In this document: in pieces, positions 1 through 11,682 of the stretch
How the letters are laid out: every line of letters begins with the position of its first letter
How positions within the stretch are numbered: the first letter of the stretch is position 1
DNA from: a virus
UHGV virus genome: UHGV-0087143
Direction: 5' to 3' (one strand)
DNA: 11,682 bases
Translations under genes and position numbers: made by a program
The notes under the pieces: generated by a model
The model's database searches: none
The model's input: the letters and a program-made list of their open reading frames with translations, nothing else
Told to the model about the DNA's origin: nothing

Positions 1-219
1 CTGATCCTGATCGTCTTGCCTTATTGAATATGATTGCTATTTGCATTTAAAATCGAGACCTGGTTTTTCTACTGAAATGATTATGACTTCAATGACCCTT
101 GAATGAAGTCTATTCGGTTTTCTTTAGATGTTCGCCTCACATAATCTTCAAGTGATGTTCCTTACATCTCCCTAGAGCGTTAAGATAGTTAACTGATTGA
201 GTTTTCAGGGTATGAAAGG

Positions 220-885
220 ATGAGCAACACTACCGACATCTTAAGCACGATAGCTGATATCACTATGGCTGGTACTGCTGTATGGGCTGCATTCAAAGCT
301 AATGATTGGTTTAAAACCAAGCGTCTTGAGAGTGCTGAAAACTTCTATAAAGAAGTACACAATCTCCATAAACGTTACTATTCAGCTATCCAATACGTTG
401 AGGATTCAAGAAGAATATTTGATAGTCAGTATGGGTTGCATTCGCCAATATCTGAACCTAAAGACAAGTCATTGCAATGGGGGGTTAAATCGAACTCTTA
501 CAAAATCATCGCTGAACTAGATTATCTGGCATCGTCACTACAAATGATGGATGCAATGGGTAACAAACTTAGCCCTAAATCGGCTTCACTGGTTAATGAT
601 ATGATGGAAGCACATGGACGATTCTGTAATGATGTGATGAACTTCAATGACTCAGTTTGGAAGGTTATAAGGGCAGGTATAACTGAAGAGAACATCCCAC
701 ATACGCGAGGCTATGTGAACGGCGATTACATGACTATCCTTACCAGTATGGATGAACCTGTAAGAATATCTTTTAGGTTAAAAGAAATCAGTTTTAAAGA
801 TTTTTACCTGCATGAAACTACTATGCAGTCAGTAATAACGAGGCTGAAATCGCTTATCGCCAGAACAGGTAAAAACAGGACATAA
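220..885 (+). CDS. Hypothetical protein, 221 aa, with N-terminal hydrophobic segment (ILSTIADITMAGTAVWAAF)
   Basis: Long ORF from ATG 220; weak SD-like AGGG 9 nt upstream; no domain recognised by eye. The 302-520 track ORF is nested in another frame and treated as spurious. Confidence 0.6.
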   Translation: MSNTTDILSTIADITMAGTAVWAAFKANDWFKTKRLESAENFYKEVHNLHKRYYSAIQYVEDSRRIFDSQYGLHSPISEPKDKSLQWGVKSNSYKIIAELDYLASSLQMMDAMGNKLSPKSASLVNDMMEAHGRFCNDVMNFNDSVWKVIRAGITEENIPHTRGYVNGDYMTILTSMDEPVRISFRLKEISFKDFYLHETTMQSVITRLKSLIARTGKNRT

Positions 886-897
886 ACAGGTTAGTAC

Positions 898-1015
898 CTA
901 TGCAATTTAAAGGCATTTTCCCAAGTATCTATGCAATCCTACACAGATTCTATGCAGTATCGATATAGTCTCTTTTTAGCGTAACCTATTGAAATATATA
1001 GAGAATCTATGAAGT
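898..1015. repeat. Cluster of four CTATG(C/A)A(A/G)T motifs (898-906, 929-937, 950-958, 1007-1015) plus a diverged ~22-bp direct repeat (965-986, 1011-1032)
   Basis: Read directly: cCTATGCAAT, tCTATGCAAT, tCTATGCAGT, tCTATGAAGT, all same strand; atagtctctttttagcgtaacc vs gaagtctcttttcagggtaaac. Confidence 0.5.
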
Positions 1016-1496
1016 CTCTTTTCAGGGTAAACTGTATCGTGTTAGTCGTCCCTCTCCAGACACTACATACAGTGCTATATACAGGGATATATAACGATAT
1101 ATAGTTGTTTGACCACTACCAATATTCCCTCAAAGTGACTATCAAGCTGCTTAACAGTTTCCCATGTGAAAGTTAGGAGGTGATGGTTATAGTTCCTTCG
1201 TAGTTCCTCTTAAAAAATCACTTGCAGACACCTTAATCTCTATACAGATTTCATGTAGAACACGATTAGTACGTAGAAGAGTCATTATGTTAAAAACACA
1301 CTGTGTTTATATCAGTACTGATTTATAAGGGTTTTGTGTATTGGGTGATAAGAGGCTATACAGCACCTTGAGAGCATGTCTTCTAAGTCATTGACATATA
1401 AGGTCACAGAAGTTTGTGTCTGTTACAGAGAAAACTGGACAGGACTTCACAGAACTATAAAATGTTACAGCTATTGATAGGTGAAATCTTCTTGAT

Positions 1497-1553
1497 AGAT
1501 GCTATGAAGTGTGATGAAGGCTTCTTGAGGTGGAGTTAACAGATGCTATGAAG
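1497..1553. repeat. Two perfect copies of 13-mer AGATGCTATGAAG, 44 bp apart (1497-1509, 1541-1553)
   Basis: Exact 13-bp direct repeat; shares the CTATGAAG core with the 898-1015 cluster. Confidence 0.6.
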
Positions 1554-2028
1554 AAAGTCAATAGTTGGTTATAGATATTTTAACTGCTTTTGCAAAGGGG
1601 GGTGCTATATCGTGAATCTGGGGTACTTAACAGCCATCAATCATGAGGTAGATTAGGGGTTGGTACAAGCCCAACTAACCGAATCAACTGTGTAGATATT
1701 TTTTAAGATTATCGGTGAAGGGGGAATGCAGAGGGGGTACTATGATTTTTATAAAAATTTTCAGAAGCCAAATAACCATTGTACAGATTTTATACAATCC
1801 TACCAAGCCTCATAGTTGATTCGATTAGGTGATTCAGTAATGAATTACTTCATGAAGCTAATCTCATAGAAAGCTCTGTAGCGAGTTTTAACCCCATTTT
1901 TAGGGGTAGTCTATAGGGATGTACCACCCACCTTAAAATAAAGGGGTAAAATCGCTTAGAATGCGTTACAGAGCGTCTGAGAAGCTATATTCACAGATTT
2001 TACTAAAGTCTCAGACTTCTAAGTAGTC

Positions 2029-2338
2029 TTTTTAACAGGAGGGGTTCCCCTATGGTCACATATCCCCTCTCTCGTTTAGTGGCCCTTGATAGCACCCGAT
2101 TAATAACCTAGAGAGTATGCCTGTAAAACTTCTGTATCAGGTCAACTATAAGAGGTCTGGATATTACCTTGTAAGATTCCTGGTAGTGATTATGCAGAGG
2201 GCTTGATAAGAGTGTTTAACGGGAGGAAGAGATATCTTTTTAACAGGAGGGTTCTTTCTCATGTATCACCCTCTCTTCCCGCTAAGTAAGCTACACAGAC
2301 CTAGAGAACATGCCTTCACAGCATCTATATCAGGTCAG
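2029..2338. repeat. Two diverged ~100-115-bp modules (about 2029-2145 and 2237-2338), each beginning TTTTTAACAGGAGGG
   Basis: Shared blocks in the same order: TTTTTAACAGGAGGG, CCCTCTCT(C)..TTAG, CCTAGAGA(G/A)(T/C)ATGCCT, TCT(G/A)TATCAGGTCA. Related CTCT(C)TCCCG(C/T)T(A/T)AG boxes recur at about 2727-2740 and 2910-2923. Confidence 0.6.
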
Positions 2339-2425
2339 ATTTAGAGGGTTTTGATAGAGTCTGTAAAGGTACTTGACAGGTAACTATGAAGTTGCTAGGA
2401 AGAGCTGTTTAACGGGAGGAAGAGA
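2213..2425. repeat. Perfect 20-bp direct repeat TGTTTAACGGGAGGAAGAGA (2213-2232 and 2406-2425)
   Basis: Exact match read in sequence; a related GTTTAACGGGGG lies at 3239-3250. Confidence 0.8.
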
Positions 2426-2847
2426 ACCATGAAACCGAAGGTAGGTTCTGTCTTAACAGTGAAGTCTTAAGAAATGTCTTGAGAGTTACCTAAACAAGCC
2501 TCTTAAGTAAAAGACAACACTCCAGAAAGAGTGTCTGTTTAACAAACTTCTCAAAAGCTCTTAAAAAGTCTGTTAAGAGAGGGCTATGTGAACATATCAT
2601 ACCATTTTGTCAATGCTTTTGTCTTTGACCTAAATCAATAAAATGTATCGTTTGATATGGTTTTAAGCAAGACGGCTAAAAAAATCTTTTTAGAGGGGCG
2701 CTTCGCTTGGGGTCACTATGTTCTTTCTCTCCCGTTAAGAGGGAAGTTACAGGGACATTTCAAAGCCCTGATAAGGTAAGCCCGATGATAACAGAAACAG
2801 AGGGCAAAACCACTTATCAACACTGTGAACGAATAACGTAAAGGGCT

Positions 2848-2884
2848 GGTTAAGAAGGTCGGTTAAGAAGGTCGGTTAAGAAGG
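2848..2884. repeat. Tandem array, about 2.8 copies of 13-bp unit GGTTAAGAAGGTC
   Basis: Copies at 2848-2860 and 2861-2873, partial copy 2874-2884; related TTAAGA(A/G)GG boxes at about 2464, 2570, 2735 and 2932. Confidence 0.8.
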
Positions 2885-2950
2885 GAGCTTCCCTTTCTTG
2901 GGTGTCGCTCTTCTCCCGCTTAGTGGATAGCTAAGAAGGCTTGAAGTTAT

Positions 2951-3126
2951 CTGTGAAGGTACTGGACAGTCTTATATATTGGGTGATTACAACTCGTTGA
3001 AAAATAAGTATTTTTAGAAATCACTGTTAAGGTTACAGAGTCAACTGTGAAGAGACTTGTCAGTTCTCTATATTGGGTGATTACAACTTATTGAAAAGTA
3101 AGAACTTTTAGAAATTACTGTCAGAG
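2951..3126. repeat. Two copies of a ~82-bp direct repeat (2951-3032 and 3045-3126), period 94 bp
   Basis: Identical 20-mer core TATATTGGGTGATTACAACT at 2975-2994 and 3069-3088 with ~85% identical flanks; partial third copy TATTGGGTGAT at 1339-1349; CTGTRAAGGTACTTGACAG-like heads also at 2361-2379. Confidence 0.8.
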
Positions 3127-3240
3127 AGGTGAATACTTGATAGATACAGCTTTCCGGTTCTGTCAAGCTATTTTTTAATAGATAGCACAAAATGCTAAAG
3201 ATACCCCTATACCATCTCGTACAGGGGGGGTTGAAGGAGT

Positions 3241-3429
3241 TTAACGGGGGTCTGTGTGGTTATCTGTTCTGGTCCTGTCCTTGAGGTCAAACGACCATTC
3301 ACGACCAAACAATCTGAACACGATAAACACTCTGACGATGAAATAGCGAAGTAGTAAGCCTGCAATCAGCCCAACACCTCCACCAGCCCATACATCAGGT
3401 GACCCCAGCTCAGGAGGGAGATTTACCAT
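3241..3429 (-). CDS. Small predicted membrane protein, 62 aa (one hydrophobic helix GGGVGLIAGLLLRYFIVRVFIVF, charged C-terminus)
   Basis: Track ORF on minus strand, divergent from the 3633 gene; weak SD GAAGG upstream; candidate promoter upstream. Could still be a chance ORF. Confidence 0.3.
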   Translation of the reverse strand: MVNLPPELGSPDVWAGGGVGLIAGLLLRYFIVRVFIVFRLFGREWSFDLKDRTRTDNHTDPR

Positions 3430-3514
3430 TCAATGTACCTTCTGTGTGCAATGCAAAAAAACATGTGACCATTCTCGATAGCCACGCTTCATATTTTCCC
3501 TCTCCCATAAACCC

Positions 3515-3544
3515 ATTATACCATAAATGTTAATAAATTGTTAA
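3515..3544 (-). promoter_or_regulatory. Candidate sigma70-type promoter (minus strand): TTAACA, 18-nt spacer, extended -10 TGGTATAAT
   Basis: Minus-strand -10 TATAAT is the complement of 3515-3520, TG of the extended -10 at 3522-3523, -35 TTAACA is the complement of 3539-3544. Confidence 0.4.
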
Positions 3545-3551
3545 AAAATAC

Positions 3552-3580
3552 TTGACATTAGTCTTTGAAACTGCTAGTAT
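3552..3580 (+). promoter_or_regulatory. Candidate sigma70-type promoter (plus strand): TTGACA, 17-nt spacer, TAGTAT
   Basis: TTGACA at 3552-3557 and TAGTAT at 3575-3580 with exact 17-bp spacing, ~50 nt upstream of the 3633 start codon. Confidence 0.5.
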
Positions 3581-3632
3581 TGTATATATAGTTAACAGGA
3601 AATTAACAAACACTAAGAGGGTCAGAATATGA

Positions 3633-4187
3633 ATGCAGGATTCAGAATTTAGAGCGATGCTTCAGGCATCAAGAGAACGCAACAAGCACAACTCCTACGC
3701 TTACACAGACACCCCCACCAGCTACGAAGTACCAGCCTTTTCCAAAACCGAACGTAAAAACATTGAAGCGGTCATTCGTAGCATTACGCCACGAGACAGA
3801 TTTATGCCAGTACGCAAAGAAAAAGAGAATACTTTAAAAACTTTCTTGATGAGCTTTGATTCTTACGAGCAACTACCATCAAAAATTGAAGATGTAATTA
3901 TCGGTACTTGTCGCAGTCTTGGAAGAGATAATTATCACCGGAAGGTTTTTTATTTACTGCGAAGTCTTGATGAGATTAGTTCAAGCACAGTGACGAGCCA
4001 TCTTCAAAGACAAGCAACCAGACTTAGCTACGAATTACCAAGTGATAAATATTGCGCTAACTTAGCCACTATTTGCATGAAAGTTATTGAGACAATTAAT
4101 CATCATGCGGAAGTTGGAAATATCAGCCTTACAACCAGTGAACCAGACTTTGAATTTGACGTATACGCACAAGCAGAGGAATTTTAA
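3633..4187 (+). CDS. Hypothetical protein, 184 aa, first gene of a rightward operon
   Basis: ORF with SD AAGAGG (3615-3620) upstream of ATG 3633; no domain recognised. The antisense track ORF 4062-4442 is treated as spurious. Confidence 0.65.
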   Translation: MQDSEFRAMLQASRERNKHNSYAYTDTPTSYEVPAFSKTERKNIEAVIRSITPRDRFMPVRKEKENTLKTFLMSFDSYEQLPSKIEDVIIGTCRSLGRDNYHRKVFYLLRSLDEISSSTVTSHLQRQATRLSYELPSDKYCANLATICMKVIETINHHAEVGNISLTTSEPDFEFDVYAQAEEF

Positions 4188-4188
4188 A

Positions 4189-4476
4189 ATGGAAAATAAA
4201 CACACACTAACCAGAGTTACAAAGACAGCCTTTGAAGAACTTAACCGAATCAAAAACATTACAGGTCTGCCACACTCAGCAGTGATGAAGCTTGCAATTA
4301 ACCGTGATATTAACGAACAAGATTTGCTTAATAGTCGCTTAGAGGCTGCAAGACACCATATCAGGATTAAGCAAGATGACCTTGATAGTCTGAAATCTTT
4401 AAATGCTTTTGGACTGGATTTAGCAAGGTTGCTAAGCATCAAAATTCACAAGTTAAAGTTAGAGATGGAGGTTTAA
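4189..4476 (+). CDS. Small putative DNA-binding protein, 95 aa, ribbon-helix-helix-like N-terminus plus C-terminal coiled coil
   Basis: Start chosen at ATG 4189 (GAGGA SD 8 nt upstream, directly after the upstream stop) instead of the overlapping in-frame track start 4087; N-terminal TRVTKTAFEELNRIKNITGLPHSAVMKLAI resembles a strand-helix-helix fold. Motif-level only. Confidence 0.5.
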   Translation: MENKHTLTRVTKTAFEELNRIKNITGLPHSAVMKLAINRDINEQDLLNSRLEAARHHIRIKQDDLDSLKSLNAFGLDLARLLSIKIHKLKLEMEV

Positions 4477-4862
4477 TGTATGACTTTTATAAACATCGTG
4501 ACCATTTGGTAAGATTTGACGGTAAAGTCTGGAAAGACGTAACACAAACCAATAAACCCAAGTTTACCCACCAGCAATTAGCCTCAAGATTTGATATCTG
4601 GACTGAAGCACAAAAAGATAATGGTGATTTCGAGTTTATCAGGGGTTTTGATTATGCTTACGAAGACGACCTTAAAGACGCCATTAAATTAATTGAGAAT
4701 TTCAACTCTATTAAAAATGGTGACAAGCACAAAGCCAATGGCAACAGATACGATAAAGATTTAATCATTGATGCAATCACCAAAGGACAATCACAAAGTT
4801 ATATTTCTGAGAAATACGGTTTATCACGCAGTCAATACTACAAGATTAAAGCGTCTGTGTAA
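4476..4862 (+). CDS. Putative helix-turn-helix DNA-binding protein, 128 aa
   Basis: Start ATG overlaps upstream stop (TAATG, translational coupling); C-terminal IDAITKGQSQSYISEKYGLSRSQYYKIK looks like a resolvase/sigma-region-4-type HTH. Confidence 0.6.
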   Translation: MYDFYKHRDHLVRFDGKVWKDVTQTNKPKFTHQQLASRFDIWTEAQKDNGDFEFIRGFDYAYEDDLKDAIKLIENFNSIKNGDKHKANGNRYDKDLIIDAITKGQSQSYISEKYGLSRSQYYKIKASV

Positions 4863-5000
4863 GCCTGTGAGAATGAGTGAGACTCAAAGATGAGCTACCC
4901 TATTACTAAGGTGTCTCACTCCCTCTGTAACCCGCATGGTTACTGGCCTCAGAATGGCTATTTTGGCAGATTTAAGATGTGTTTTTAGAGGATTTTAAAA

Positions 5001-5324
5001 ATGAACAATTACCCGCTACAGATTTTCGTTGATAGCGACACCGCTCTGATGATTCAGGCTTTCAGTGATTCCGGTGTATCAATTGACTTTGACAGGCTGT
5101 TAAGGCTAATGGCTAATAACTCAGAAACAATTGAAGATTTTATTCAGTCGGTGGAGTTTAACGAGCCTCGAATGATGCTACCAATTAAAGACAGCAACAT
5201 GAAAAGATTGGTTATCGAGCAAACGAACAAATACAGCGTTAGCCCTGAAAGATATCTCAAGGCAGCTATAGCAATTTTGTACGCTGACAATATTTTGGTG
5301 ACGGATTCGAAGGTGGTGCATTAA
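5001..5324 (+). CDS. Hypothetical protein, 107 aa
   Basis: ORF from ATG 5001; no domain recognised. Confidence 0.55.
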   Translation: MNNYPLQIFVDSDTALMIQAFSDSGVSIDFDRLLRLMANNSETIEDFIQSVEFNEPRMMLPIKDSNMKRLVIEQTNKYSVSPERYLKAAIAILYADNILVTDSKVVH

Positions 5325-5389
5325 TGGAATTGGTGATTATCTGTTTTGTATTGATTGGTATGATTGCAGGTGCATCTATTAAAGTATAA
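5324..5389 (+). CDS. Possible 21-aa hydrophobic peptide (MELVIICFVLIGMIAGASIKV)
   Basis: ATG overlaps stop of the 107-aa gene (TAATG); strong SD GAAGGTGG 7 nt upstream; entirely hydrophobic. Below the track length cut-off; speculative. Confidence 0.25.
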   Translation: MELVIICFVLIGMIAGASIKV

Positions 5390-5454
5390 ATGTTACCAAT
5401 CTGTTAAAAAGCTGTTGACAAATAACCTTAAGCATGACATAATTTTAATTATGG

Positions 5455-5481
5455 GAGAGTAATTCTCTCTTATATTTTTTT
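5455..5481 (+). terminator. Candidate rho-independent terminator for the 3633-5389 operon
   Basis: Stem GAGAG/CTCTC (5455-5459 / 5465-5469), loop TAATT, followed by TATATTTTTTT. Confidence 0.4.
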
Positions 5482-5659
5482 CAATAATCCGATGGATGGA
5501 TGGATATTCTGAGTTGGTGAGGTATGTTCTATACCGAACATTCTGAAAGGTGCAATGCTTTTCGCTACATGGCCTCTTATATAACCTGAGAGGTCATCTC
5601 GAAAAGTACTCTTGTTCATTCGTTTGAATCCTTCAGAAGTTTTAATTTCTTCACCTTAT

Positions 5660-5702
5660 GAATAGCCCTTTATAAGAAATTATCTAGGGCTATTCAGTTT
5701 TT
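5660..5702 (+). terminator. Candidate stem-loop/terminator: 10-bp stem GAATAGCCCT / AGGGCTATTC, 16-nt loop, then AGTTTTT
   Basis: Perfect 10-bp inverted repeat at 5660-5669 and 5686-5695; T-run only on the plus strand. Confidence 0.35.
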
Positions 5703-5776
5703 AAAAAGCATACTTGGCAAACCGCCTTTTAAGCCTCTTCTAAGTTCGAGGATGTCAGGTGTGCTTTTTAAAAACT
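5696..5776. promoter_or_regulatory. Perfect 15-bp inverted repeat pair AGTTTTTAAAAAGCA (5696-5710) / TGCTTTTTAAAAACT (5762-5776), 51 bp apart; operator-like
   Basis: Exact reverse complements; each contains the palindrome TTTTTAAAAA; ends 36 bp upstream of the 5812 start codon. Confidence 0.4.
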
Positions 5777-5811
5777 GAAACATAAATTATCTTAGAAGAG
5801 GAAAGGTATTA

Positions 5812-6516
5812 ATGGCTATCCGTGATGAAAATGAAATGATTATTGAAAGCCGACCAAGTGCACTTGATATTCACGAATTAACTTTGCGTGAATCTTTTGA
5901 TAGAGCTTGGCGGGAATCACACGAAGTAAATAAAGGTCCATATATTCCACCAGAACCACTCGAGATTCCAAGAGTTGAAATTGATTTTTCTATGAACGAA
6001 CAGTGTGAACTTGATTTGAAGTTGAAGCTACAACGCCGATATTTCCAAGCTATTAAAGACTCTCAAGAAGCAATGAGAAGTGTTTACGAGAAAATTCAGT
6101 CCAAGCTTGAAGACGAAATCGACGAAATGGCTATTTTGATGGAGCTTCAAACCAATTCTTATGCTTATTTCTCTCGACTAGACCGTGACGGTTGGGGGTA
6201 TGACCCTGTAGAGATTGGTAAAGTGATTGCAGATTTACCAGAAGGTCAAAGGGTTATTCGTACGGAAAGGGCCATCAGAGCGCCACATCGACTGTCTCTA
6301 ATTGTTGCTGATAAATCACAAGCTGAGCTTGAAGAAATTGCCAAAGAGAAACTGATGAAAGCAAGAGAAAATGAGATTAATTTGCTGAAATCAAGACTGG
6401 CTAAGCTGATTAGTGACCATCAAGCGCTGGCTAAGGAGTACCGTCAAGAGTTGGCACAGATTATCAGCTTCAATGATTTTCTGAGTGTTCCACGAGAATT
6501 TAGCAAGGCTGTTTGA
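5812..6516 (+). CDS. Hypothetical acidic protein, 234 aa, with C-terminal coiled-coil-like region
   Basis: ORF with SD GAGGAAAGG upstream of ATG 5812; no domain recognised. Confidence 0.65.
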   Translation: MAIRDENEMIIESRPSALDIHELTLRESFDRAWRESHEVNKGPYIPPEPLEIPRVEIDFSMNEQCELDLKLKLQRRYFQAIKDSQEAMRSVYEKIQSKLEDEIDEMAILMELQTNSYAYFSRLDRDGWGYDPVEIGKVIADLPEGQRVIRTERAIRAPHRLSLIVADKSQAELEEIAKEKLMKARENEINLLKSRLAKLISDHQALAKEYRQELAQIISFNDFLSVPREFSKAV

Positions 6517-6539
6517 TTATGAATTAAAAGAGGTGATTA

Positions 6540-6752
6540 ATGTTTGAAGAACGTTTAGAGACTATTCGGTCTGTTTGCGAAAGACTCCAGCTACAACCAA
6601 ATAGACAAAAGCTACGAATTAAGAATAACCGTCATTACATCACCTCACACAAACCAAAAACACGCAAGATTCCAAAGTGGTGTCTTGATAAATTACCAAG
6701 TGATTGTCAGATTGTCGGTGAAGATGGTAATTATTATCTTGTCAGACATTAA
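6540..6752 (+). CDS. Small basic protein, 70 aa (three Cys, Lys/Arg-rich centre)
   Basis: ORF with SD GAGGTG (6530-6535) before ATG 6540; function unknown. Confidence 0.5.
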   Translation: MFEERLETIRSVCERLQLQPNRQKLRIKNNRHYITSHKPKTRKIPKWCLDKLPSDCQIVGEDGNYYLVRH

Positions 6753-6802
6753 AAAAGAATTGGTTGGGTATATGAGATAGGTTCTATCGAATCTATAGTA
6801 CG

Positions 6803-6844
6803 GGGAGAGATTATCGATATTATTCGGTAGTTTCTCCCTTTTTT
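6803..6844 (+). terminator. Candidate terminator: stem GGGAGA/TCTCCC around a 24-nt loop (containing palindrome TATCGATA), followed by TTTTTT
   Basis: GGGAGA 6803-6808, TCTCCC 6833-6838, T6 at 6839-6844; loop unusually large so strength uncertain. Confidence 0.4.
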
Positions 6845-6893
6845 GTATATGAGGATAGTCTTCTATCCGAAGTCTATGAGGTGAAAAATATGA

Positions 6894-8978
6894 ATGAGCA
6901 AATTTACAGTTGATAGTTTTATTGTTGAGCTGGGCTTCAGTGAAAACGTTATTAAGGGATTGCAAAGAGTTGAAAAGGCAGCTTTGCAGTCAGCACAAAG
7001 AATTGAACGTAATTTGAATAGAGCGTTTAAGGTCGATACCAAGCAACTTGACAGCAATTTAACGGCTTCTTTAAAGTCAATGGAAGGGAAAATTAATAAG
7101 ACCTTTGACAAGATTGAGCAGCGTCTTAAAAACACTAGAGCGTTTAAGATTAAAACGGAAATTGAGGATACTTTAAAGCCACTTAGACAGCCAAGACAGC
7201 CACGAATTAGCGGCAACAGAGCAATCACAGCAGCTTATTCAGCGAATATGAGCAAGTTAAAGGGCTTTGACCCTATTTTGCAGAAATACATCAAATCTCA
7301 GTTTTACGGGCTATCTGCTAAAGCTGGGTCAATGGATAATTCAAAATTCAATGAGAAGTTAGCTCAGCTAAATGCTTCAGTCAGAGAAGCAATCACTAAA
7401 GCCAGAGGTCATACATCCACCAGCAAAAACAATCACAGTGAAAATGCTTCAAATGGTTTAGATGTATTAGCTACAAGTGCAATCAAAGCAGGTACAGCCA
7501 TTTATAGTTTTCAGACAGCCTTAGAAGCTTATAGGAAGGTTATGGAAGTTGGTCTGAAAAAAGAAGCATCACAACGAGCGGCACAATTCGTTTTAGGTGA
7601 TGAAGGTGCTAAACGAGCTACAGAATTTGTTAAGAATCTTGCTGATAGTAGTGGTGTAGACCAGATTGAAACATTAAGCAGTTTTGCTAAGTTTTCCGCT
7701 GGTGCTGGTGATATGAATGCAGACCAGAAAGAATCCTTATTTTCTAATGTGATTGGTACATCCCGACTAATGGGTTTAAGCACTGATGAGATTAACGGGA
7801 TTCTAAAAGCTTTCGAGCAGATGGCGAGCAAGGGCAAGATTCAAGCTGAAGAATTACGCGGTCAGTTAGGGGACAGAATGGCAGGTGCTTTTCAGTTATT
7901 TGCCAGAAGTCTTGGGATGACTACAGAAGAATTAGACAAGGCCATGAAGGACGGTAAGGTTCTTTCTAAAGATGTTCTTCCTAAAGTATCCGCTGAAATG
8001 GGAAGGATGATTGATAAAGCTGGTGGATGGGAAAAGATTATTAACTCTACTCAGACGCAGTTAGGCCGCCTTTCTAATTCATGGAATAATAATCTGGCCT
8101 TAATGTTCGACGGTTCACAGGAAGGTTTAACAGACTTTACAAGGTCACTGACTAATTTACTTAATTCACTAGGTGGTCAATCTAAAAATCTTGGTGAACA
8201 TTTTGGCGACTTGATGAAAAGCATGTCAAACGGTGTTGATGATTTAACCACGATTAGCTACCGAGCACAGGGATTCTTTGACAGAGTGACCCTTGCTTAC
8301 AGAGAATTAAATGACACTCAAAAAGCTGTAGCTGATGGTATCGCAAATGGCCTGTTAAGTGCATTAAAGGGGCTTGCTGGTATAGTCGCTGTAAGGTCTG
8401 GGATTGGTGCTGTAGGTGGTATCTGGAACTTAATTAGGGCTATTTCCACGCTTGGAAATGTAGCAAATACAGCAGCAGGAAGAATCAATTCACGTTCTGC
8501 TGGTAGTGTTGAAGGTGGTAAAGGAAAATTATCTGTAGCTGATGCAATTACCAAAGTAATGATTGTCGGTATGGCAACTGATGTGATTAACTCCATTGTT
8601 AAACCACTCTATGAACGCCAGATGAGTAAGTCAGATAATCCAATTGATAAAGTTGTAAGGTCAAAGGTGGAACCCACAGACCAAGCATTGACTGGTGACA
8701 TGAACTCTTTAGCTGCTGTTTTATGGGCTATGGTTCAGGGCAAATCAAAAGATGTTCCACAGTTTTCACCGGAAGCATTAAATAATCTGAAAGGTCGAGT
8801 GGAAACATTCACACAAGATTTAAAGGTTATCAAGCCGTCAGTAAATATTCAGCCTCAGACAATCAATATCACAACTCAGACGGTACTTGATGGAAAGGTT
8901 ATTGATGAAAGAACCACATCGCATATTAATCGTATGCAGGAAGATACCTTGATTAGCTCAGCTTACCCAGAGGAATAA
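6894..8978 (+). CDS. Phage tail tape measure protein-like, 694 aa
   Basis: Internal segment ...GLSTDEINGILKAFEQMASKGKIQAEELRGQLGDRMAGAFQLFARSLGMTTEELDKAMKDGKV... matches the conserved tape-measure core (ELRGQLGERLPGA-type motif); helical N-terminus and Gly/Ala-rich hydrophobic segment (GIANGLLSALKGLAGIVAVRSGIGAVGGIW) typical of tape measure proteins; SD GAGGTG (6878-6883) before ATG 6894. The four antisense track ORFs inside it are treated as spurious. Confidence 0.8.
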   Translation: MSKFTVDSFIVELGFSENVIKGLQRVEKAALQSAQRIERNLNRAFKVDTKQLDSNLTASLKSMEGKINKTFDKIEQRLKNTRAFKIKTEIEDTLKPLRQPRQPRISGNRAITAAYSANMSKLKGFDPILQKYIKSQFYGLSAKAGSMDNSKFNEKLAQLNASVREAITKARGHTSTSKNNHSENASNGLDVLATSAIKAGTAIYSFQTALEAYRKVMEVGLKKEASQRAAQFVLGDEGAKRATEFVKNLADSSGVDQIETLSSFAKFSAGAGDMNADQKESLFSNVIGTSRLMGLSTDEINGILKAFEQMASKGKIQAEELRGQLGDRMAGAFQLFARSLGMTTEELDKAMKDGKVLSKDVLPKVSAEMGRMIDKAGGWEKIINSTQTQLGRLSNSWNNNLALMFDGSQEGLTDFTRSLTNLLNSLGGQSKNLGEHFGDLMKSMSNGVDDLTTISYRAQGFFDRVTLAYRELNDTQKAVADGIANGLLSALKGLAGIVAVRSGIGAVGGIWNLIRAISTLGNVANTAAGRINSRSAGSVEGGKGKLSVADAITKVMIVGMATDVINSIVKPLYERQMSKSDNPIDKVVRSKVEPTDQALTGDMNSLAAVLWAMVQGKSKDVPQFSPEALNNLKGRVETFTQDLKVIKPSVNIQPQTINITTQTVLDGKVIDERTTSHINRMQEDTLISSAYPEE

Positions 8979-9212
8979 ACAATGTTAGAGCTACTAATAT
9001 TTATTGCCACACATGGCAACCTATTAATCTTTATCTAGTATGACGACTCAACTATGAATAGTCGAATGCTACGTGAAATCTCCTGAACAGATATACCCAC
9101 TGAAAAATAGAATTTACGTAGCTCACGCTTAACAGAGAAAATACTTATATATCAAAGGCTTGGTTAAAAATGACTGAAATACACTAAGTCTTTGAAATCA
9201 AAGGAGAATTTA

Positions 9213-9986
9213 ATGATTTACTCTAATCAGATTCGTTACAGTGGCAAAGATGGCATCTATTTCCACTTAAGAGATAATGTAGATGCCTTCTTAACTTTAT
9301 CAGCAACTGAGAACATGGAATTTGATAGCCCTATGCAGGTGACTACACAGAACATGCAATCAGGGCAAACCGTCACAGATAATGTGCAAAGAGCACCCAG
9401 AACAATCACTATTAGTGGTGTCGTTGTAGTTGGCTATGAAGGAAGCTTATTATTAACTCGTCAGGGTCAATTAGTAGAAAACTTCATCGACACCCTTGAA
9501 AGCTGGCGTGACCAGAAGCAGATTATTTCGGTCATCTGTAAAGATGGTATCAAGATTGATGACTCCATTATTACAAGTTTTAAAGCCTCTAAAGATGTTG
9601 GTATTTCAAATGGTCTAAGAATCCAGCTAACTTTTCAGGAAATTAACTTTAAAGCTGTTGTGGGGCAGACTGATATCTCGGCTGCAACTGGAAAAGCCGC
9701 GACTACGAATGATGGTGGTGTGACCAGTAAAAAGAATGCGGGTAACGTGACCACTGAACGCAATAACGCACCTATGCTGATGTGTCAGGAACTGTACAGT
9801 TACTCAGCATCTGAGCTATCTGATGAAGCGCTAAGGGTCCGTAGCAATTGCTCTAAAAATGTCACGGTGAAAGATGGTGTAAGCACCTTCACAGCCTCAG
9901 CTAATGAGCAGGCTTCAAAAGTGCTTAAGTCGGGTAATGCTTTACGGAAGTTTTCTGTGAATCCGAATAAGAAGGGCACTTATTGA
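9213..9986 (+). CDS. Hypothetical protein, 257 aa, downstream of the tape measure gene (possibly tail-associated by position only)
   Basis: Start chosen at ATG 9213 (SD AAGGAG 6 nt upstream) instead of the in-frame track start at 9192, which is a TTG codon; no domain recognised. Confidence 0.65.
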
Positions 9987-9990
9987 GACA

Positions 9991-10013
9991 TAAAAAGGGG
10001 CTTCATAGCCCCT
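9991..10013 (-). terminator. Rho-independent terminator for the recombinase gene, shared between convergent genes
   Basis: GC-rich stem AGGGGC/GCCCCT (9996-10001 / 10008-10013), 6-nt loop; on the minus strand the stem is followed by a U-run (complement of A-run 9992-9996); lies between the 9986 and 10019 stop codons. Confidence 0.6.
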
Positions 10014-10018
10014 GAAAA

Positions 10019-11539
10019 TTACAGTTGATAAGCGTCAATATCCAGTAGCTCTTTATCAGCAATTTCAAAGATTGGTGACCCATCATTTAGCGGTAACGGG
10101 TTTGTAGGTATGGTGATTTCAGTGTCGTTCTGTAGCGTTACAGTTACCGAATCCTTACCCAATGTAAGCCCTTTTAGATGTTTGGACAAAATCAACTGAC
10201 ACTCGACACGACCCGCTTTAGTTGTCAGGTCAATATCTTTAAGCTGGGGTAGTTCCTTATCAGTGAGTGAAGCCTTACGCCTCATGTTATCAATAGTAGT
10301 CTGTAGTTCTGTGCGCTTCTGGTTAAGTCCCTTCACCTGTGCTTTCAACTCTGTAATGTCATCCATTTCAAGAAGTAGGGCGGTAGCTTTCTTGATTCTG
10401 GCTGTGACAATTTCAACCTCATGCTGTAGAGATGCAATCTTCCCCTCTGCTTCTCCATCATTCCCCACGTCAATCATCCCCAGAAAATTATCAATCATCC
10501 ATCGGTCAAACGGTTTACGCTTCAACGGTGGAACATCACAGCGACCGTCTAAGTGGTTATTGCACCTGTAGACCCCTGCATACTTATTCTTGGTTCCGGT
10601 AGGATGGACACTAGCCCCACACTGACACCGGAATAATCCCTTGAAGATGTTAATCGTTAATGGGTTATCACTTGCAGGTGTGCGGCCTTTACGATTCTTG
10701 TCGAGAATCTCTTGAGCTTTATTGAACGTTGCAGCATCTATAGCGGCTTCGTAGTAGTTCGGTATAGCGGGGCGGTCATTACGCTGTGATGCTGGTAACG
10801 TGCCTATTGTTGTCTCCGACCTTAAGATGGTGCGTACAGAATGGACGCTAAACCCATTAGCATCTTTACGGCGACTAAACGACTTTATACCGTTGCTTTG
10901 AAGGTGACGGGCGATGTTATGCAGACTTTCACCACTTAGCAGCAGCTTGAAAATCAGTCTTACAGTCTCAGCGTGTTCATTGAGTTTGAGAGTATCGGGG
11001 TCAATCCATCCGGGAACCATCTTTGTTAAACGTTGTTTACCAGCAAGGGCAAGTTTTGCACGTTGTTTCCACTTCTCGCTAACACGGAAAGACTTCTGCT
11101 TACTCTCCTGATGCGCTAGGTAGCTTTTAACCCGCTGAATGATTGAGATTCCTAAATCATCGGATAGAGCATCCCTTGTGTAGATTAGCCCATCCTGTAG
11201 AGTGTGAATCTCGATACCATGAGCAATAATGCGATTCATCAAGGCTTCTGTTTCAAGATGCTCTAATCGGCCTATACGGTCGATACTCTCAACTAGCAGA
11301 ATTGTACCTCCTGGAAACTCCCCAGCCTCAATACGGGCTAACATGTCACCAAACTGACCAGTAAGGTGTTTACCTTTGTAACCGGATAGACCCTCATCAC
11401 TGAAAGACGCTACTACTTGAGCATCGCTATTCTTCTTCAACCATTGTTTGAACAGGTCGTTTTGTCGTCTGGTTGAATCAGCACCTTCAGCACCTTGTGT
11501 GGCTGATGAGAATCTCAAGTATGTTATTACGGTTCTCAC
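10019..11539 (-). CDS. int: Large serine recombinase (serine integrase), 506 aa
   Basis: N-terminal resolvase-type catalytic domain with the serine nucleophile motif (YLRFSSATQ) and downstream LLVESIDRIGR; central recombinase region; Cys-rich zinc-ribbon-like segment (CQCGAS...YRCNNHLDGRCD); C-terminal coiled-coil-like region. GTG start with SD GGGAG 9 nt upstream. Antisense track ORFs 10263-10571 and 10914-11111 treated as spurious. Confidence 0.9.
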   Translation of the reverse strand: MRTVITYLRFSSATQGAEGADSTRRQNDLFKQWLKKNSDAQVVASFSDEGLSGYKGKHLTGQFGDMLARIEAGEFPGGTILLVESIDRIGRLEHLETEALMNRIIAHGIEIHTLQDGLIYTRDALSDDLGISIIQRVKSYLAHQESKQKSFRVSEKWKQRAKLALAGKQRLTKMVPGWIDPDTLKLNEHAETVRLIFKLLLSGESLHNIARHLQSNGIKSFSRRKDANGFSVHSVRTILRSETTIGTLPASQRNDRPAIPNYYEAAIDAATFNKAQEILDKNRKGRTPASDNPLTINIFKGLFRCQCGASVHPTGTKNKYAGVYRCNNHLDGRCDVPPLKRKPFDRWMIDNFLGMIDVGNDGEAEGKIASLQHEVEIVTARIKKATALLLEMDDITELKAQVKGLNQKRTELQTTIDNMRRKASLTDKELPQLKDIDLTTKAGRVECQLILSKHLKGLTLGKDSVTVTLQNDTEITIPTNPLPLNDGSPIFEIADKELLDIDAYQL

Positions 11540-11611
11540 GGTGATAAACTCCCATGCAATTGATTATCATTTAAAGATGAACTTATAAACGTTATGGCTA
11601 ATGCTACAATG

Positions 11612-11640
11612 CCGAATAGCTACAATACAATGACCCTTGA
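11612..11640. other. Candidate recombinase attachment-site junction (right end), partner of 90-117
   Basis: CCGAATAG, 8-nt spacer, CAATGACCCTTGA, ~75 bp upstream of the recombinase start; sequence beyond 11640 turns GC-rich (CCTCGCCGCTTCCCCTGGCCGACG). Confidence 0.3.
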
Positions 11641-11682
11641 TTTACCTCGCCGCTTCCCCTGGCCGACGTTACTTTCGGTCTG

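Follow-up and report, generated by a model that had tools for sequence, protein, structure and literature searches.

Why should an insertion in the chromosome of Escherichia coli carry a recombinase of its own and two genes for the interior of a phage tail, beside a long region that codes for no protein of any size? The question is raised by an 11,682-nt stretch of DNA, the virus genome record UHGV-0087143 (the window, to which all unlabelled positions refer). A first-pass annotation, made from the letters alone, had described a compact serine-integrase element without capsid, terminase, or replication genes. Searches with Pfam, PHROGs, and NCBIfam agree: among the window proteins they detect no family of capsid, portal, terminase, sheath, tube, or replication proteins, and the only virion genes are those of a tape measure protein (TMP) and a tube initiator (TI), so that, as in a satellite, the full set of virion and packaging genes is missing. 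We lean toward the view that the element is an integrative satellite, or a satellite-like parasite, of lytic Felix O1-like phages (Felixounavirus, Ounavirinae).

The limits of the element follow from a 13-bp direct repeat, CAATGACCCTTGA, present at 90–102 and again at 11628–11640, and from E. coli genomes without the insert, in which window 1–102 is joined directly to 11641–11682. The element is therefore the 11,538 bp at 103–11640, inserted in the E. coli chromosome, and the first-pass coordinates, 90–11640, coincide with the attachment boundaries. The same annotation had proposed the search for an empty site, and had named a larger intact prophage around the window as the finding that would overturn it. 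In the complete genome closest to the window (88% coverage, 94.8% identity), the insertion lies between yciI/kch and tonB/yciA, chromosomal rather than prophage genes, and no prophage was found beyond the window on either side. The sequence ATGACCCTTGA is the start of tonB, and the insertion therefore lies exactly at the tonB start codon. Three features define the integrated state.

1–102, plus strand: left chromosomal flank, with the native tonB promoter region, a truncated tonB start, and the attL core repeat at 90–102
10019–11539, minus strand: large serine recombinase (integrase), 506 amino acids (aa), with three domains above Pfam cutoffs and a match to the phrog_95 integrase family (1.4e-81)
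11628–11682, plus strand: attR core repeat (11628–11640) and intact tonB start (ATG at 11630)

The 506-aa protein is the large serine recombinase that had been proposed: its Resolvase (PF00239, 66.3 bits), Recombinase (PF07508, 60.6 bits), and Zn_ribbon_recom (PF13408, 28.1 bits) domains all exceed their cutoffs, and the nucleophilic serine of the catalytic Resolvase domain can be read directly in the motif YLRFSSATQ. With its own recombinase, attachment repeats, and an empty site elsewhere, the insertion is a discrete mobile element, as a phage satellite should be.

The link to a particular group of phages comes from the two tail genes (dN/dS is the ratio of nonsynonymous, dN, to synonymous, dS, substitution).

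6894–8978, plus strand: TMP, 694 aa, homologous to the Felixounavirus TMP (742 aa); dN/dS 0.26
9213–9986, plus strand: TI (Dit-like), 257 aa, with a phage-type tube-like N-terminal domain and an element-specific C-terminal extension; dN/dS 0.11
9237–9746, plus strand: tract 94–96% identical in DNA to living Felixounavirus phages, from a DNA search of phage genomes

The 694-aa protein, called tape-measure-like in the first-pass annotation, matches Pfam TMP_3 (PF20155; 1.5e-20, 74.2 bits against a cutoff of 41), PHROG 4036 (8e-99), and, with both termini covered, the TMP of phage Bas63 in the Protein Data Bank (PDB) entry 9ndy (9ndy_F; 1.2e-76). It is homologous over its full length to gp73 of Felixounavirus phage wV8, and with the TMP_3 domain, the homology to a virion TMP, and the synteny with wV8, it is a TMP of the Felixounavirus type. 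Both large proteins have the domains proposed for them, whose absence the first-pass annotation had named as a second refuting finding. The gene had been called an orphan, and its product and the recombinase the only recognizable proteins of the element. Neither description stands, because the gene adjoins that of TI, which is also recognizable, and the two have the adjacency and order of wV8 gp73/gp74. TI matches Pfam Dit_like (PF21821; 2e-20, 73.5 bits against a cutoff of 24.2), PHROG 3721 (1.7e-133), and 9ndy_A (5.6e-121), and its tube-like N-terminal domain is homologous to that of a structurally defined tube initiator.

Both proteins are conserved unevenly. In TMP, the N-terminal ~45 aa are ~80% identical to those of the phage and the C-terminal tail QEDxLxSSxYPEE is conserved, with a diverged body between them. 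TI is near-identical to the phage protein until about residue 185, after which comes a C-terminal extension that is unlike that of the phage and common to the elements. In the Bas63 structure (PDB 9ndy), a TI hexamer starts the tube and bridges the symmetries of hub (three-fold) and tube (six-fold); TI combines a tube-protein fold with a ~100-aa C-terminal extension that spans the baseplate beside the spacer proteins, and the last 25 residues of TMP touch the hub and the puncturing device (PMC12609058). The conserved parts of the element TMP are its N terminus and the C-terminal residues that make these hub and device contacts in Bas63. Judged by homology, TMP and TI are the two proteins that line and start the tail tube of the helper.

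Part of the TI gene bears the mark of recent recombination. In the DNA search, 219 records, almost all Felixounavirus (wV8 and Felix O1 relatives), match 9237–9746, the sequence that in wV8 forms gp74, directly after the TMP gene gp73. TI alleles of other family members are only ~72–75% identical to any phage, and the 94–96% identity of the window tract therefore argues that the element has recombined recently with Felixounavirus phages. When the phage TI gene was searched against 5426 complete E. coli genomes, 474 matched, always over the N-terminal two-thirds only, and 228 of these at 90% identity or more; the phage-type C-terminal part was present in none of the 474. This pattern points to repeated exchange of the TI N-terminal domain with co-infecting phages, and to selection that would keep the tube-facing domain matched to the phage while the element-specific baseplate extension is retained. 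The best phage matches for TMP and TI were always Ounavirinae; for a variant of the family in Citrobacter, the top-ranked phage matches were of the Shigella phage Sf13 and Citrobacter phage Michonne types, at ~72%. TMP and TI aside, no protein or non-coding stretch of the element matched wV8 in sequence comparison.

Compared with the Felixounavirus tail module (wV8 gp73/gp74; Bas63 gp17/gp18; PDB 9ndy), the element thus encodes true homologues in the same order, the N-terminal domain of TI being up to 96% identical in DNA. It differs in that its TMP is 48 aa shorter and only ~30% identical overall, its TI ends in an extension of a distinct type, and its two genes are parted by regulatory spacers and lie in a chromosomal island with an integrase. 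One such spacer holds a conserved block, with matches of ~90% in two relatives (L001 and L005; such labels denote loci fetched for comparison) and of 81% in a third (L007), that in other members also stands upstream of the TMP gene.

9067–9137, plus strand: conserved 70-nt intergenic block upstream of the TI gene, a candidate regulatory site

Two structural genes beside an integrase might also be tail genes captured by accident, or what is left of a decaying prophage, and serve no function today. The phage relatives found for the TMP–TI pair are all Ounavirinae, however, described as lytic in the cited papers and records, and the element is not decaying. Its core (3441–9136) occurs in 483 of the 5426 genomes (~9%), in up to three copies each, all of them chromosomal. 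Every fetched locus shows one gene order, and none of the core genes is disrupted. For six of them pairwise dN/dS is 0.11–0.26, with dS up to more than 1. The core genes are under purifying selection, and a decaying remnant is therefore largely refuted; the non-coding region (NCR) of the element, described below, is moreover conserved as well as the genes are. We regard the remnant as scarcely credible.

The family is not confined to E. coli or to one site. According to their sources, close relatives of one core protein, that of orf184, belong to Shigella or Salmonella, and one relative of another, that of orf234, to Citrobacter freundii. Recombinases of members at the tonB site and at a second site, yecE, are only 34% identical, and in the Citrobacter variant a third type, 28–40% identical, stands at the opposite end of the element; the same core is thus paired with recombinases only 28–40% identical at tonB, at yecE, and in a third context. 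The same core with swapped recombinases, at several sites, in ~9% of genomes, and on non-E. coli contigs indicates frequent horizontal movement.

Other exchanges affect parts of the family. In the Citrobacter variant (L024 1351–2304, L026 3059–7606), the recombinase is at the opposite end, the NCR is shorter (~1 kb), and the place of orf184 is taken by a 317-aa protein that has a winged-helix domain, HTH_36 (29.5 bits, cutoff 25); the latter two may be alternative modules for replication or regulation. Several relatives encode a second, small serine recombinase of the resolvase/invertase type (182–191 aa) beside the non-coding region (L005 1975–2544, L006 2120–2668, L026 5023–5598), which hints at invertible or resolvable segments there. 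In O157:H7 strain E32511 (L018), a 13.4-kb family member occupies yecE, a site also used by Stx phages; SpLE2 of O157 Sakai, which one paper places near sbcB, was considered as a possible yecE-site member.

Cargo is swapped between members along with the integration modules. The left arm of the window holds a gene found in few of its relatives.

220–885, plus strand: orf221, a variable cargo gene, first inside attL; present in only 3 of 16 family loci, other members having different cargo here

Elsewhere the left arm contains small serine recombinases, an orphan methyltransferase, an AP2/HNH homing-endonuclease-like gene whose product is 33% identical to an HNH endonuclease of wV8, or a block with the PADLOC candidate defence family PDC-S15. 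This last is the cargo of L008, a yecE-site member (4615–8210), and includes an FRG-domain protein that matches PDC-S15 at 2.4e-99. The L008 block also contains three unknown genes and an ISNCY transposase.

At tonB itself, the insertion rearranges the host gene. A stub remains behind the native promoter at the left end (ATG at 92, three more codons, and a stop, four codons in all), and an intact tonB is rebuilt at the right end of the element. The native promoter is cut off from tonB and now directed into orf221, which sits downstream of it; tonB is instead preceded by element DNA, in which a possible promoter, TTGATT...TATAAA, was read by eye near 11559–11590. Expression or iron regulation of tonB may therefore be altered in carriers. 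The promoter region so replaced is that of a gene needed by several other phages and by colicins.

A candidate site for replication and/or packaging is the NCR.

886–3240, no strand assigned: conserved NCR with repeat arrays, 2.35 kb, longest open reading frame (ORF) 44 aa; candidate replication and/or packaging site

This is the 2.35-kb repeat-rich region without long ORFs of the first-pass annotation, and its repeats are real: an 83-nt tandem pair at 2945–3121, units 193 nt apart at 2106–2425, and a perfect 13-mer in 2.8 copies at 2848–2884. TTAACRG, a word whose reverse complement is CYGTTAA, is overrepresented: the window has 20 copies where 3.3 would be expected, and 13 of the 20 are in the NCR. 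The region is conserved at ~85% identity in 8–12 of 16 loci, the same as the genes. A sliding RNA-folding scan gave a mean z of −0.18, versus −0.42 for coding controls, and no window below −3; a large structured RNA is therefore unlikely.

Phage wV8 has a gene-free region of its own, 1.65 kb long (13885–15530), between convergent gene blocks and dense in YTGTTARG and CTATARAG words; such a region was not described in the papers on Felixounavirus that we examined. The record of Felixounavirus H12, which was analysed by PhageTerm, opens inside this phage NCR (L022 and L023 are the two ends of the record), and the physical genome ends of Felixounavirus therefore probably lie there. Similar words are also found in promoter-bearing intergenic regions upstream of wV8 gp46 and gp104.

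The two non-coding regions share vocabulary. The element word TTAACRG is enriched in the wV8 NCR (6 observed, 0.9 expected, P = 3e-4), and the top phage words are enriched in the element NCR (TGTTAR, 15 against 3.7, P = 1e-5, beyond all 300 shuffles). Hexamer-enrichment profiles of the two regions correlate with r = 0.263; for 102 other phage windows used as controls, r was 0.062 ± 0.037 with a maximum of 0.164. Across the family r is 0.10–0.28, and 11 of 12 loci lie above the control maximum. A 28-nt block, GGGAACGATAAGANNAGAGNTAGTGACC, located ~270 nt from the start of the H12 record (L022 268–295), is common to the phage terminal NCR and five family members (L005 3426–3453, L008 10734–10761, L011 2859–2886, L019 2389–2416, and L020 1345–1372); it is also present in four phage-sized contigs of IMG/VR.

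A separate match within the NCR is to another group of phages. The 43 nt at 1949–1991 are 90.7% identical to the record of a T5-like Salmonella phage (Epseptimavirus; E = 4e-5 against 2.3 Gb), inside an annotated 9.4-kb repeat region at the start of that record. In the window these nucleotides belong to a ~146-bp unit (1873–2018) that is also found inverted elsewhere in L001 and L005.

A large NCR beside an integrase could have a different meaning. Elements that carry only an origin of transfer (oriT) are moved by conjugative plasmids and need no transfer genes, and the present element might be one of these, with an oriT in the NCR and the tail genes as incidental anti-phage cargo. Its composition is compatible with this idea. 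Yet no relaxase, coupling protein, or known mobilization domain was found (Pfam, NCBIfam), and the element was never found on a plasmid. Moreover, TMP and TI belong to the core and not to the variable cargo, and the words of the NCR resemble a phage region. Mobilization by plasmids thus seems very unlikely.

Returning to a satellite of Felix O1-like phages, we propose the following life cycle. Upon infection by such a phage, the recombinase would excise the element. Excision would require a directionality factor; none is recognizable in the element, and the phage could supply it, as PexA does for the PLE satellites of Vibrio cholerae. The NCR would recruit phage proteins that act on the phage terminal region, for replication and/or for cutting and packaging. 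A gated late operon would express the element TMP and TI, and these would fit the phage tail through the conserved contacts (the N terminus and C-terminal 25 aa of TMP and the tube-like domain of TI), replacing the body of the phage TMP and the baseplate extension of the phage TI. The altered tails could then serve transfer of the element, by delivery of a small genome, and/or cut the infectivity of the phage, protecting the host population. The variable left arm would bring extra cargo, including the candidate defence gene of L008. We know of no other satellite that rebuilds the tail interior of its helper. In this full form, a new enterobacterial satellite family that copies the phage terminal NCR for replication or packaging and rebuilds the helper's tail interior with its own TMP and a chimeric TI, the tube-facing domain of the latter being kept in step with circulating phages through repeated recombination, the proposal is a tentative one, and each single role that might be assigned to the tail proteins is, taken by itself, doubtful.

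Several observations weigh against such a satellite. Excision, replication, and packaging of the element are steps that we infer. No replication initiator, small terminase, capsid-size factor, or excision factor is recognizable in the window, and no circular or concatemeric element-only contig was found in IMG/VR or among assembly contigs; the IMG/VR matches are single copies inside 20–54-kb contigs and the 11.5-kb contigs have yecE flanks, integrated copies in both cases. The likeness of the window NCR to the phage NCR is one of word content: there is no similarity to Felixounavirus DNA at the level of BLAST, short direct matches are no better than in a coding control, and the 28-nt block GGGAACGATAAGANNAGAGNTAGTGACC is absent from the window. 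The phage ends are placed where one PhageTerm-analysed record opens, which is not a mapped terminus. Finally, heads and tails assemble separately, so that a tail part alone cannot favour heads filled with element DNA, and the gain to the element from tail parts of its own is not evident.

In the most substantial rival, the insertion would be a defence island that is not carried in phage particles, its TMP and TI acting as dominant-negative decoys that join the tail assembly of Felix O1-like phages and make the tails defective; it would protect the clone and spread rarely, by other routes. Conserved contact surfaces joined to a diverged remainder suit an assembly poison, and the contact-surface pattern of the two proteins is explained equally well in this way. 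The candidate defence cargo of relatives is in keeping with it, as are the lack of any packaging or replication gene and of element-only DNA in virus collections; even PLE transduces poorly in the laboratory (PMC7145576). Rare spread is, however, hard to reconcile with swapped recombinases at several sites, ~9% of genomes, and non-E. coli contigs, and mobility is evident although no conjugation gene is present. In addition, a conserved 2.4-kb NCR with phage-like words has no role in a pure decoy model. We consider a defence island of this kind unlikely, if a serious alternative; it overlaps with a satellite of Felix O1-like phages, for an element may both interfere with a phage and be transferred by it. 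The best reading is still the one that the first-pass annotation had supposed, an undescribed lineage of satellites or defence islands, with Felixounavirus now as candidate helper and with recombination and purifying selection in its favour; the satellite behaviour itself is the conjectural part. We found no description of the element, or of any Ounavirinae satellite, in the literature, where coverage of subscription journals was partial and an earlier description is possible.

The remaining genes of the window have no significant match in Pfam, PHROGs, NCBIfam, or PADLOC (proteins of 221, 62, 184, 95, 128, 107, 234, and 70 aa), and PADLOC found no known defence family among the window's own proteins. 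A transfer RNA scan of the window found none, and an Rfam scan gave only sub-threshold chance matches. The layout of these genes and of the signals between them is as follows.

3241–3429, minus strand: orf62, 62 aa, divergent from the main operon and annotated in relatives, with a hydrophobic stretch that, by eye, looks like a membrane segment
3515–3580: divergent pair of sigma-70-like promoters, leftward TTAACA-18-TATAAT (to orf62) and rightward TTGACA-17-TAGTAT (to the orf184 operon)
3633–4187, plus strand: orf184, which opens the rightward operon and encodes a core orphan protein
4189–4476, plus strand: 95-aa small protein, ribbon-helix-helix-like by its sequence pattern; dN/dS 0.18
4476–4862, plus strand: orf128, with a weak helix-turn-helix match at its C terminus (HTH_28, 0.0031, short of the Pfam cutoff)
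5001–5324, plus strand: orf107, covered in 15 of 16 loci and among the most widely conserved core genes; dN/dS 0.23
5415–5474, plus strand: near-consensus promoter (5415–5443) and immediate intrinsic terminator (5450–5474)
5693–5779: 27-nt inverted repeat I1, 89% complementary, with a 33-nt spacer, upstream of orf234
5812–6516, plus strand: orf234, a core protein, with long helices and no other secondary structure predicted; dN/dS 0.17
6540–6752, plus strand: orf70, a small core protein, its position conserved in all relatives
6802–6839, plus strand: strong terminator-like hairpin just upstream of the TMP gene, 16 pairs and a T-run
9996–10013, minus strand: terminator-like hairpin between the convergent TI and recombinase genes

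The signals upstream of the tail genes suggest control of their expression. The promoter at 5415–5443 (TTGACA-17-CATAAT with an extended TG, 11 of 12 promoter matches) is followed within ~10 nt by a stem-loop and T-run, and a second terminator stands before the TMP gene. We infer from this arrangement a gated late operon, in which read-through, by antitermination, would need an additional factor. Unless termination were overridden, the promoter would yield only a very short RNA. The gene just upstream is orf107, placed as Q is in front of the late promoter of lambda. A TGTTAA...TGTTAAAAA sequence upstream of the divergent promoters is repeated at 5378–5420 (repeat D3). At the inverted repeat (5693–5779), Rfam gave weak sub-threshold matches only.

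The small proteins allow fewer statements. The 95-aa protein looks like a ribbon-helix-helix protein and is putatively DNA-binding; its family matches are weak (DndE, 0.039; phrog_1389, 0.0011). In other members (L001, L005, and L018), alternative modules, a small ORF and an HNH endonuclease, stand at the position of orf128. A 62-aa gene occupies the position of orf62 in the Citrobacter variant also; it is pure speculation that its product might influence superinfection or, the presumed helpers having rIIA/rIIB genes, the timing of lysis. For orf234 there are 40 relatives, among them the one named Citrobacter freundii (67% identity). The PDB sequence matches of this protein were dismissed as coiled-coil noise, and its structure model, with a predicted local distance difference test (pLDDT) score of 55.5, was too low in confidence for a fold search.

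Should the element indeed be a parasite of Felix O1-like phages, several consequences would follow. These are classic typing phages and frequent ingredients of the cocktails used in therapy and biocontrol against E. coli O157 and Salmonella. With a parasite in about 1 in 11 sequenced E. coli strains, the failure of such phages on particular strains could be explained, and the parasite would provide a new marker of resistance. Most known satellites of virulent phages come from Vibrio. Their biology would become easy to test with an enterobacterial family whose host and phage form a tractable pair, E. coli with Bas63 or wV8, a full virion structure being available. A satellite aimed at the tail interior rather than the capsid would represent a new hijacking strategy. 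The chimeric TI is in itself a natural experiment on which tail contacts must match.

How, then, does the element relate to satellites already described? The first-pass annotation had cited the PLE family as a precedent, leaving membership open. PLE combines a serine recombinase, a 2.7-kb repeat-bearing NCR that holds the origin, and a lytic myovirus helper (PMC7145576), and PLEs, which 15 marker genes define, form very homogeneous groups restricted to V. cholerae (PMC10085698). The precedent stands. Both are compact islands (11.5 kb for the element, 18 kb for PLE) integrated by a large serine recombinase, with a repeat-bearing NCR of 2.4–2.7 kb (an origin in PLE, a candidate only in the element), a strictly lytic myovirus as helper (presumed for the element), and mostly orphan genes. 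For the host, the outcome is likely to be defensive, as in PLE.

Membership does not stand. The hosts of the element and nearly all relatives of its core proteins are Enterobacteriaceae, and not V. cholerae with ICP1, so that the restriction of PLEs to that species and helper does not hold for the element. Neither a RepA_N-type initiator nor any other family shared with PLE was recognized in Pfam, PHROGs, NCBIfam, and PDB sequence searches, which did not include a direct comparison with PLE sequences. The element integrates at the tonB or yecE genes, PLE at integron repeats, and the element carries helper-derived TMP and TI genes, which to our knowledge no PLE does. That it belongs to the PLE family is so improbable that we give the idea almost no weight.

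Other satellites of enterobacteria resemble the element in different respects. Like cf-PICIs and P4-like satellites, it is an E. coli chromosomal island that presumably relies on virion parts of a helper; some of these satellites have structural genes of their own, and their variable hotspots hold defence genes. These satellites have tyrosine integrases and temperate helpers and are directed at the capsid, through capsid genes of their own or through size redirection by Sid or Psu. The element, in contrast, has a serine recombinase, points to a lytic helper, and carries genes for the tail interior. Of the features generally known as hallmarks of P4-like satellites, PICIs, and cf-PICIs, neither the tyrosine integrase, AlpA-type regulator, and primase-replicase nor the capsid-directed genes (Sid/Psu/Delta, small terminase, own capsid) were found in the element by Pfam, PHROGs, and NCBIfam. 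PICMIs, the satellites of virulent Vibrio phages, are closer in one sense: they too are small islands tied to virulent phages, with no capsid-remodelling genes and presumably helper-dependent packaging. They live in a different host family, share no genes that we detected with the element, and are not reported to have tail genes. Taken together, these comparisons incline us to see the element as the representative of a new satellite family with a tail-directed strategy, like PLE in its workings and yet not a PLE.

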